A DNA stretch of 64,000 bases from Escherichia phage EJP2, in the sequence record OQ411014.1; one strand, 5' to 3'. The notes beneath the pieces are model-generated. The model searched no databases, was not told where the DNA came from, and saw nothing but the letters and a program-made list of their open reading frames with translations. A program made the translations under genes and the position numbers. This document shows positions 32,610 through 47,728 of the stretch, piece by piece. Position 1 is the stretch's first letter; each line of letters opens with the position of its first letter.

Positions 32610-32643
32610 ATTTTTGAACATTTCAGAAAAAATGTGATATAAT
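32610..32643 (+). promoter_or_regulatory. extended -10 promoter (TGTGATATAAT at 32633-32643)
   Basis: exact recurring 11-mer, upstream of tRNA. Confidence 0.55.
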
Positions 32644-32681
32644 ATAAGTACAGGAGATGAGAGTTCTCCTGTAACAAATTA

Positions 32682-32754
32682 GCTTGAATAGCTCAGTAGG
32701 TAGAGCAGCGTACTTGTAATACGAAGGTCGTGGGTTCAATTCCTGCTTCAAGCA
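32682..32754 (+). tRNA. tRNA-Thr (anticodon UGU)
   Basis: manual cloverleaf: acceptor GCTTGAA/TTCAAGC, D-arm TAGCTCAGTAGGTAGAGC, anticodon loop CTTGTAA, T-loop GGTTCAATTCC; no encoded CCA. Confidence 0.8.
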
Positions 32755-32803
32755 TTTATTCATACGATGATAATAAAAAATAAATATAGTCCTTGACAAT
32801 CTT

Positions 32804-32833
32804 ACCCAGAATTTGTATTCTGGGTTTTCTTTT
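32804..32833 (+). terminator. intrinsic terminator
   Basis: ACCCAGAAT / ATTCTGGGT perfect stem then TTTTCTTTT. Confidence 0.7.
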
Positions 32834-40485: not shown

Positions 40486-40576
<91 letters not shown>

Positions 40577-40689: not shown

Positions 40690-40764
40690 CGGGGTATAGC
40701 TTAATGGATAAAGCAGTAACCTTCTAAGTTATTGATCTAAGTTCGATTCTTAGTATCCCGACCA
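40690..40764 (+). tRNA. tRNA-Arg (anticodon UCU)
   Basis: acceptor CGGGGTA/TATCCCG, anticodon stem GTAAC/GTTAT with loop CTTCTAA, T-arm CTAAG-TTCGATT-CTTAG, encoded CCA. Confidence 0.8.
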
Positions 40765-43101: not shown

Positions 43102-43191
43102 AGAAGGTTGGCAGAGCGGCTAAATGCACTCGCCTACTAAGCGAGCACTCGCTCCGGCGAGTCGAGGGTTCGAATCCCCCACCTTCTGCCA
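43102..43191 (+). tRNA. type II tRNA with apparent ACU anticodon (Ser-like, unusual)
   Basis: acceptor AGAAGGT/ACCTTCT, anticodon stem CTCGC/GCGAG with loop CTACTAA, long variable arm, T-loop GGTTCGAATCC, encoded CCA; anticodon read by hand. Confidence 0.6.
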
Positions 43192-44445: not shown

Positions 44446-44540
<95 letters not shown>

Positions 44541-44695: not shown

Positions 44696-44769
44696 GGCCC
44701 TTTAGCTCAGTTGGTTAGAGCAGAGAACTCATAATTCTTTGGTCACTGGTTCGAGTCCAGTAGGGGCCA
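44696..44769 (+). tRNA. tRNA with CAU anticodon (Met or lysidine-type Ile2)
   Basis: acceptor GGCCCTT/AGGGGCC, D-arm TAGCTCAGTTGGTTAGAGC, anticodon loop CTCATAA, T-arm ACTGG-TTCGAGT-CCAGT; no CCA. Confidence 0.8.
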
Positions 44770-46840: not shown

Positions 46841-47163
<323 letters not shown>

Positions 47164-47232
47164 TACAGTAAGATAACCTCCCCTCAATGCGAAAGAGTAT
47201 GGAGACTTGTTGGTTATCTTACTTCCTAAATA

Positions 47233-47294
47233 GCCGTTTAGCTCAGTTGGTAGAGCAAACACCTAGGTCGTCTGTTCGAGTCAGATAAACTGCA
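47233..47294 (+). other. tRNA-like element lacking an anticodon arm (possible tRNA remnant)
   Basis: acceptor GCCGTTT/AAACTGC, canonical D-arm TAGCTCAGTTGGTAGAGC and T-arm GTCTG-TTCGAGT-CAGAT, but only about 13 nt between them. Confidence 0.4.
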
Positions 47295-47311
47295 CAAAAT
47301 AAAGGTACAAT

Positions 47312-47728
47312 ATGGAATACAACATTGTTAAAATGGTGAACTACGTATTAAAAAACAACACATGGTCACTCTATGATGTACAAATAGAAGATATTGGTGA
47401 AGTTAGAGTATTTTGTTATGATCCAGATTTGTATGAAACCACAGATTTGAGTAAATGTTTTAATATTTTTCTTGGTTATGAAATCAATAATCATTTTTAT
47501 TCATTTGATGTGTATTTTGAACGAGTTATAATCAGAATTACTAATGTAGATAATGATTATTTTGACACTGAAATTATATTGAATTTTAACGATATTGATA
47601 CAGAAGAAAAATTCTTCCAGTACTCTTTAGTTAACGACACAATGGGATTGTCATTTGAGGACATTGAAGCTATACTTAAAGTTCAAAGTTCAATTTCAGA
47701 AGAGGTTCTAAATCCGTTAAATGTCTAG
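47312..47728 (+). CDS. hypothetical protein, paralog family A (TEEKFFQYSL)
   Basis: family motif near C-terminus. Confidence 0.55.
   Translation: MEYNIVKMVNYVLKNNTWSLYDVQIEDIGEVRVFCYDPDLYETTDLSKCFNIFLGYEINNHFYSFDVYFERVIIRITNVDNDYFDTEIILNFNDIDTEEKFFQYSLVNDTMGLSFEDIEAILKVQSSISEEVLNPLNV

Follow-up and report, generated by a model that had tools for sequence, protein, structure and literature searches.

Predicted tRNA pseudogenes have been reported in the tRNA clusters of phages, including "Pseudo" calls in T4-like phages (PMC1524935). The tRNA regions of phages also undergo turnover driven by homing endonucleases, as described for SegB of T4 and T6, and T4 SegB shows that a homing endonuclease can act within a tRNA cluster (PMC2330249, PMC13096335). 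Two tRNA-Thr genes are part of the published description of the phage fEgEco12 (PMC13070987), one of the relatives considered below. We analysed a stretch of 64,000 nt from Escherichia phage EJP2 (OQ411014.1), hereafter called the window, in which a tRNA-like element without an anticodon arm lies on the plus strand at positions 47233–47294. Its comparison with the same locus in related phages indicates that the element is very probably a pseudogene that has lost its function and descends from a phage tRNA-Thr(UGU) gene, namely from the allele that we call type B.

The sequence of the element is GCCGTTT A GCTC AGTTGGTA GAGC A AACAC CT AGGTC GTCTG TTCGAGT CAGAT AAACTGC A, and the parts of a tRNA can be assigned along it on the plus strand from end to end. 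The 5′ strand of the acceptor stem (47233–47239) is followed, after a linker of 1 nt (A47240) instead of 2 nt, by a canonical D arm (GCTC-AGTTGGTA-GAGC, 47241–47256) and by A26 (47257). The segment AACAC (47258–47262) is the orphan 5′ half of an anticodon stem, C32-U33 occupies 47263–47264, and the variable loop AGGTC occupies 47265–47269. A canonical T arm (GTCTG-TTCGAGT-CAGAT, 47270–47286), the 3′ strand of the acceptor stem (47287–47293), and a discriminator A (47294) complete the element. The gap between the D arm and the T arm is exactly 13 nt (47257–47269), compared with approximately 23 nt in a normal tRNA (17 nt for the anticodon arm, 5 nt for the variable loop, and position 26). These results confirm the initial annotation, which had described acceptor, D, and T arms without an anticodon arm, only about 13 nt between the D and T arms, and a position in a tRNA cluster among small ORFs; the parts lie where it had placed them, and the ARAGORN tRNA calls and a survey of the ORFs agree with the position. 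The acceptor stem, which had been said to pair around the two arms, forms six of its seven pairs, with C3 (47235) facing U70 (47291).

Compared with a functional tRNA (RF00005), the D and T arms are complete, and the elbow nucleotides G18 and G19 and U54, U55, and C56 are all present. The 5-bp stem and the 7-nt loop with its anticodon are missing, with only the 5′ half of the stem and C32-U33 left, and in place of a 7-bp acceptor stem with a 2-nt linker (U8, N9) five or six of the seven pairs are formed, depending on which T is counted as lost. The Rfam tRNA model (RF00005) covered 47233–47294 end to end with 31.3 bits (gathering score, 29; E = 0.0047), and 5 nt replaced 15 model positions of the anticodon arm in this alignment. 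The match was obtained in a permissive scan of 22 kb of the window (30–52 kb); Rfam with its default filters did not list the element over the whole window, and ARAGORN made no call for it, even at 80% of its thresholds. Nevertheless, the element is more than a chance resemblance, because the Rfam model aligns to it end to end and because it can be aligned base for base with the intact tRNA-Thr genes found at the same locus in the relatives. The score of 31.3 bits compares with 48–71 bits for the six real tRNAs of the window, and 14 of the 21 cloverleaf pairs are formed, compared with 19–21 in those intact copies that fit a 73-nt frame. The minimum-energy fold of the element (−12.9 kcal/mol, against −12.5 kcal/mol for shuffled sequences; z = −0.15) is not a cloverleaf and does not contain the acceptor stem. 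Judged by its minimum free energy against shuffled sequence, the element therefore lacks the stable fold expected of a selected tRNA mimic.

We also considered that the element could be a functional tRNA of an atypical kind, with a complete alternative fold such as a T-armless "Pro(AGG)" that uses CCTAGGT as its anticodon loop. ARAGORN in the metazoan-mitochondrial mode does propose an mtRNA-Pro(agg) at 47233–47295. However, this mode is at noise level, with eight "genes" called on the two strands of 321 nt, and the bacterial mode was empty, again even at 80% of the thresholds. Moreover, homology identifies the segment used for the alternative stem as the true T arm, and to our knowledge T-armless tRNAs are not used by bacterial EF-Tu and ribosomes. 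The intron mode gave an "intron-containing Cys" with a 69-nt intron, which was at noise level and was rejected. A complete alternative fold had been named in the initial annotation as the finding that would speak against it; such a fold was rejected after the bacterial (default, -ps, and -ps80), intron, and mitochondrial modes of ARAGORN had been run, and none was found under the bacterial tRNA criteria. We assign almost no probability to a functional atypical tRNA.

The 1.1 kb around the element matched 36 phage records with 81–92% identity. They all represent the 121Q/PBECO4 group, as jumbo coliphages or as Salmonella phages, and the fully classified ones belong to the genus Asteriusvirus. 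The window appears to be a mosaic relative of the Asteriusvirus-type phages, because only about a fifth of a 12-kb stretch of it matches at the megablast level. All of the 25 relatives in which the syntenic position was compared carry one or two intact tRNA-Thr(UGU) genes there, as called by ARAGORN, and the genes have a hairpin upstream and a gp141-like ORF downstream that correspond to those of the element. The comparison with homologous loci, which had been proposed together with the initial annotation, thus gave a complete tRNA-Thr(UGU) in 25 of 25 cases, and the element aligns to these syntenic genes. The intact tRNA-Thr genes scored 53–74 bits with the Rfam model in the four relatives scored.

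The locus holds at least five sequence types of tRNA-Thr (A, B, B′, C, and the type of UE-S1) as single or tandem copies. Type A begins with GCCGACTTAGCTCAGTAGG. Type B, which runs from GCCGTTTTAGCTCAGTTGG to ATCTGTTCGAGTCAGATAAACGGCA, is the second tandem copy in Turkey3, Ecwhy_1, CMSTMSU, fEgEco12, and BF17; its intact copies score 72–74 bits, and its closest matches in E. coli are plasmid-borne tRNA-Thr genes with 86% identity. Type B′ occurs in JNE01 and Turkey5, where it is the first copy. Type C, a strongly diverged tRNA-Thr(UGU) allele with 52.8 bits in TH47, was found in TH47, EC.P1, vB_Ec-M-J, and WPEC5 (L008, L009, L014, and L015), and a further type was found in UE-S1. The type-A gene of Ecwhy_1 (L004:946-1018) and the first copies of CMSTMSU, fEgEco12, and BF17 match the chromosomal tRNA-Thr(UGU) of E. 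coli at all of their 73 nt (100% identity); of 5426 complete E. coli genomes, 5421 have this tRNA. At the level of sequence, this identity points to a recent capture from the host or to gene conversion with it. In the other variants of type A the anticodon stem has diverged, and in JP4 and Turkey3 it contains an A27·A43 mismatch; an A52·C62 mismatch in the T stem occurs in all type-A copies.

The window has neither a type-A copy nor the 37-aa gp139-like ORF, both of which are carried by relatives. This ORF (114 nt; gp139 of 121Q, labelled "acetyltransferase" in Turkey3; L002:956-1069) lies in the relatives between the promoter-proximal ORF and the hairpin and is absent at 47056–47163 of the window. 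In SD-15_S21, a different deletion fuses the −35 region directly to the 37-aa ORF. The tRNA-Thr locus is one of general decay and turnover.

The element is identical to type B at 58 of 62 aligned bases and is separated from it by two gaps of 1 nt and 10 nt, so that 11 nt are missing in all, including the whole anticodon. Alignment with the second copies of Turkey3, Ecwhy_1, CMSTMSU, fEgEco12, and BF17 places the junction of the 10-nt deletion on the plus strand between 47264 and 47265, which abut each other. The deleted segment is TGTAAGCGAT or, equivalently, TTGTAAGCGA (tRNA positions 34–43); it contained U34-G35-U36, A37, and A38 as well as the entire 3′ strand of the anticodon stem. The microhomology at the junction is only 1 nt, and the deletion created the palindrome ACCTAGGT. 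The 1-nt gap falls in the TTTT run of tRNA positions 5–8, where the element has GTTT (plus strand, 47236–47239) and intact type B has GTTTT; one T of position 7 or 8, at the junction of the acceptor stem and the D arm, has been lost. The base at tRNA position 70 is T (plus strand, 47291) instead of the G of all type-A, B, and B′ alleles, and this change gives the C3·U70 mismatch. The orphan half of the anticodon stem differs from type B by two substitutions (ATCGC to AACAC), and the sole change in the T stem, A49 to G, keeps the pairing as G·U. The D arm and the T loop are identical to those of type B. Types B and B′ share the other state at all four substituted positions, which indicates that the four substitutions arose in the lineage of the window.

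The changes that distinguish the intact alleles from each other preserve pairing. A C-G pair of the anticodon stem is replaced by G-C, C51 to U gives G·U, and the acceptor pairs 4-69 and 6-67 are altered on both sides between B and B′. In contrast, the G70-to-T change of the window breaks pair 3-70. The element thus combines a deleted anticodon, a broken acceptor pair, and a lost junction nucleotide, as expected of a pseudogene. The substitution level against type B is 6.5–8.1%, compared with 6.8–9.6% in the adjacent non-coding leader and 10.6–12% in the downstream ORF. A level similar to that of the leader and below that of the ORF is, taken alone and with four substitutions only, weak support for decay.

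These lesions would be errors of sequencing or assembly if the phage truly had an intact type-B tRNA-Thr, and the loss of 1 nt does affect a run of T (TTTT to TTT), and such homopolymers are typical sites of these errors. A clean 10-nt deletion accompanied by four substitutions, including the pair-breaking G70-to-T, is nevertheless untypical of consensus errors. The neighbouring sequence is also normal, and the gp141-like ORF aligns with those of the relatives essentially without gaps. We therefore regard an artefact as exceedingly unlikely.

The number of alleles at the locus raises a further possibility regarding the origin of the deletion, namely that a homing endonuclease cut the tRNA-Thr allele during a co-infection, that imprecise repair lost 10 nt, and that the resulting cleavage-resistant allele persisted thanks to a second tRNA-Thr. 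This proposal is compatible with a pseudogene and concerns how it arose. The at least five sequence types speak for it, as does an ORF of approximately 130 aa that directly follows type C in EC.P1, vB_Ec-M-J, and WPEC5 and is annotated as an HNH endonuclease in vB_Ec-M-J and WPEC5. The latter association suggests that allele replacement at the tRNA-Thr locus is driven by homing endonucleases, and turnover of this kind could explain the many alleles and the tandem copies. However, no endonuclease gene adjoins the element in the window, and the link depends on a putative cleavage at tRNA-Thr by an Asteriusvirus HNH enzyme; the 1-nt microhomology at the junction says nothing either way. To read the 10-nt deletion as a repair scar is speculation, and such an origin seems very unlikely to us.

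ARAGORN identified six tRNAs in the window: Thr-UGU at 32682, Ser-UGA at 40487, Arg-UCU at 40690, Ser-ACU at 43102, Ser-GCU at 44451, and Met at 44696. No further tRNA remnant was found in the window at the Rfam gathering threshold or between 30 and 52 kb in the permissive scan. The tRNA-Ser at 43102–43191 (47.9 bits, one mismatched pair in the T stem) has the unusual anticodon ACU (A34), which is also annotated in 121Q (gene 131) and would need A34-to-I editing or unusual decoding.

The tRNA-Thr(UGU) at 32682–32754 (plus strand, 66.5 bits with the Rfam model) is intact, belongs to a different sequence type, and lies 14.5 kb upstream of the element. It forms a self-contained unit with an extended −10 promoter-like site (32614–32643), a short hairpin (32649–32673), and an intrinsic-terminator-like hairpin with a T run (32804–32833). 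No Asteriusvirus record matched its flanks, and only the tRNA body matches the tRNA-Thr of unrelated phages; for the region 32614–32833, the closest partial match is Klebsiella phage fENko-Kae01 with 73%. Phage 121Q has no tRNA-Thr other than that of the syntenic locus in the 48 kb around the cluster. The loss of the gene at 47233–47294 would be tolerated because this self-contained tRNA-Thr(UGU) and that of the host are both available; a tRNA-Thr at the decayed locus is dispensable when an intact copy lies in the window and another on nearly every E. coli chromosome.

The sequence upstream of the element contains a sigma-70 promoter-like site on the plus strand (47030–47057) that agrees with the consensus at 12 of 12 positions (TTGACA, 16 nt, TATAAT) and lies 176 nt upstream of the element. 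This site, which is also conserved in the relatives Turkey3, Ecwhy_1, EC.P1, and slurp01, probably gives rise to a transcript through the element. No terminator was found between the element and the next ORF (47312). The element is probably still transcribed, because it lies downstream of a conserved consensus promoter without a terminator before that ORF. The ATG of a 35-aa reading frame of the window overlaps the −10 hexamer of this site, so that a transcript from the promoter would exclude this ATG.

A long hairpin with a perfect outer stem of 12 bp (AGTAAGATAACC/GGTTATCTTACT) lies on the plus strand at 47167–47223, 9 nt upstream of the element. It occupies the same place in 15 relatives in one alignment and in 19 relative sequences in another, whichever tRNA-Thr allele follows. 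Changes in the hairpin among the aligned relatives were one-sided, without compensatory pairs. The hairpin is not a canonical terminator because it has no T tail, and it may serve in the processing or the stability of the tRNA precursor. The downstream ORF (plus strand, 47312–47728, 138 aa), a homologue of 121Q gp141 in PHROG 17453, starts 18 nt after the element. The neighbouring ORFs had no match in Pfam, and their PHROGs matches were all to families of unknown function.

The segment 46925–47160 is approximately 99% identical in Turkey3, Ecwhy_1, EC.P1, and slurp01, whereas its flanks differ by approximately 10%. It contains an extended −10-like sequence (TGGTACAAT, 46927–46935) and, upstream of the promoter at 47030–47057, a segment of approximately 90 nt that folds better than shuffled sequences (z = −2.37) and includes a T run. 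A 22-bp near-perfect palindrome with one mismatch (GGATATTGTTGCAACAGTATCC, 46993–47014) lies within this 90-nt segment. The equivalent of 46925–47160 is annotated in the relatives as an ORF of 71 aa; the conservation at the nucleotide level suggests instead a small RNA or a regulatory region (operator and promoter).

The arrangement of promoter, element, and ORF would also suit a tRNA mimic, in which the anticodon arm was lost and selection keeps the module of acceptor stem, T arm, and D arm. As a site for RNase P and RNase Z (or RNase E), such a mimic would separate the leader from the mRNA of the downstream gp141-like ORF; as a decoy, it would bind tRNA-binding host factors. Bacterial RNase P needs essentially the helix formed by the acceptor stem and the T arm, and tRNA-like processing signals such as mascRNA exist. 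Consistent with such a role, both arms are intact, including G18 and G19 and U54, U55, and C56, six of the seven acceptor pairs remain, and the element lies between a consensus promoter conserved in the relatives and the next ORF without a terminator.

We searched for the truncated form elsewhere. It was absent from 50,697 phage records (blastn of a 76-nt element), from IMG/VR (exact 32-mer and degenerate 38-mer), and from the JGI metagenome contigs (degenerate pattern). Among the data searched, the truncated architecture is limited to a single genome. A selected mimic would be expected to be conserved, whereas the phage records, IMG/VR, and the metagenomes do not contain the truncated form and the tRNAs of all 25 relatives are complete. 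The acceptor stem, which is the main need of RNase P, is damaged by C3·U70 and by the shortened 7/8/9 junction, and the predicted fold is no better than that of shuffled sequences and has no acceptor stem in its minimum-energy structure. In addition, the intact tRNA of the relatives already gives any processing function, so that no new selection is needed for what survives. A mimic maintained by selection is thus unlikely. A joint reading is that a transcribed remnant is still seen by RNase P or tRNA-binding factors and has been co-opted to process or stabilise the transcript of the gp141-like operon, or as a decoy, to which we give only a slender chance. In its decoy version, the remnant could not be inactivated by a defence nuclease that cleaves the anticodon or the variable loop. 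If this joint reading were true, the locus would represent a phage tRNA in transit to a non-decoding role.

Of the two readings offered in the initial annotation, that of a decaying tRNA pseudogene is borne out by the intact homologues in 25 relatives, the three independent structure-damaging lesions, the absence of the truncated form elsewhere in the data searched, and the back-up tRNA-Thr. The reading as a retained mimic or RNase P/Z signal gained no positive support: conservation of the truncated form is lacking, the acceptor stem has suffered damage of its own, and shuffled sequence folds equally well. In the order of events that we infer for the pseudogene, an ancestor carried a type-B tRNA-Thr(UGU) at this position, like the intact copies of Turkey3, Ecwhy_1, CMSTMSU, fEgEco12, and BF17. 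The 10-nt deletion in the lineage of the window would then have taken out the anticodon along with the 3′ strand of its stem, which would leave the RNA unable to decode. Threonine identity is determined by acceptor-stem pairs and anticodon nucleotides (PMC9976931), and with the anticodon lost the remnant would not be charged efficiently. The loss of the T at position 7/8 and the G70-to-T change that breaks pair 3-70 may have followed as further damage, as would be expected under relaxed selection. In the simplest history, the lineage acquired or kept a separate tRNA-Thr(UGU), and the old locus became redundant and decayed. RNase P might incidentally cleave the remnant, of which the T arm, the D arm, and most of the acceptor stem survive; any such cleavage would be a leftover property and not a selected function.

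Two observations run against a pseudogene. The D arm and the T loop are untouched, whereas approximately 2–3 substitutions are expected over 33 nt at a neutral divergence of 7–10%, and the element, which lies downstream of a perfectly conserved consensus promoter, is predicted to be expressed. The shortfall of substitutions over the D arm, T loop, and T stem is not significant; it fits a recent deletion equally well and is also compatible with constraint.

The decay of one tRNA gene is of small general importance, although it forms a clean and well-documented case in a jumbo phage. In practical terms, a genome annotation should list a tRNA-Thr pseudogene here, and neither a gene nor empty spacer; ARAGORN and Rfam with default filters miss it. 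The tRNA-Thr locus of Asteriusvirus has an unusually fast turnover, the signs of which are its at least five types, one of them identical to the host gene and one linked to HNH, and is useful for studying the gain, duplication, and loss of phage tRNAs.

The element can finally be placed among the known kinds of reduced tRNAs. Like the armless mitochondrial tRNAs of nematodes and mites, which are shortened to approximately 55–62 nt, it is a short molecule. However, in those tRNAs it is the D or the T arm that is lost, and the anticodon arm is always retained; the element is the reverse and therefore cannot decode, and its membership in this group was rejected on that ground. It resembles mascRNA/MALAT1-type elements, RNase P minihelix substrates, and viral tRNA-like structures in that the anticodon arm is reduced or absent while the acceptor stem and T arm are kept, and in its position inside a longer transcript (predicted here) upstream of a functional sequence. 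These systems are distinguished by conservation across lineages and by demonstrated processing, whereas the element occurs in one genome, has a damaged acceptor stem, and is known from its sequence; assignment to the selected tRNA-like processing elements was rejected for lack of conservation. The closest intact counterpart is the type-B tRNA-Thr(UGU) of Asteriusvirus, with which the element shares the locus, the flanks, 58 of 62 bases, and an identical D arm and T loop, and from which it differs by the 11 missing nucleotides, C3·U70, a score of 31 instead of 72–74 bits, and the absence of an ARAGORN call. Like the tRNA pseudogenes reported in phage clusters (PMC1524935), it has a partial cloverleaf, a score far below those of functional genes, and an intact counterpart in relatives. 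It differs from them in that its lesion is exactly defined against 25 syntenic loci: instead of a diffuse degeneration, the anticodon was cut out cleanly and the D and T arms were left intact.
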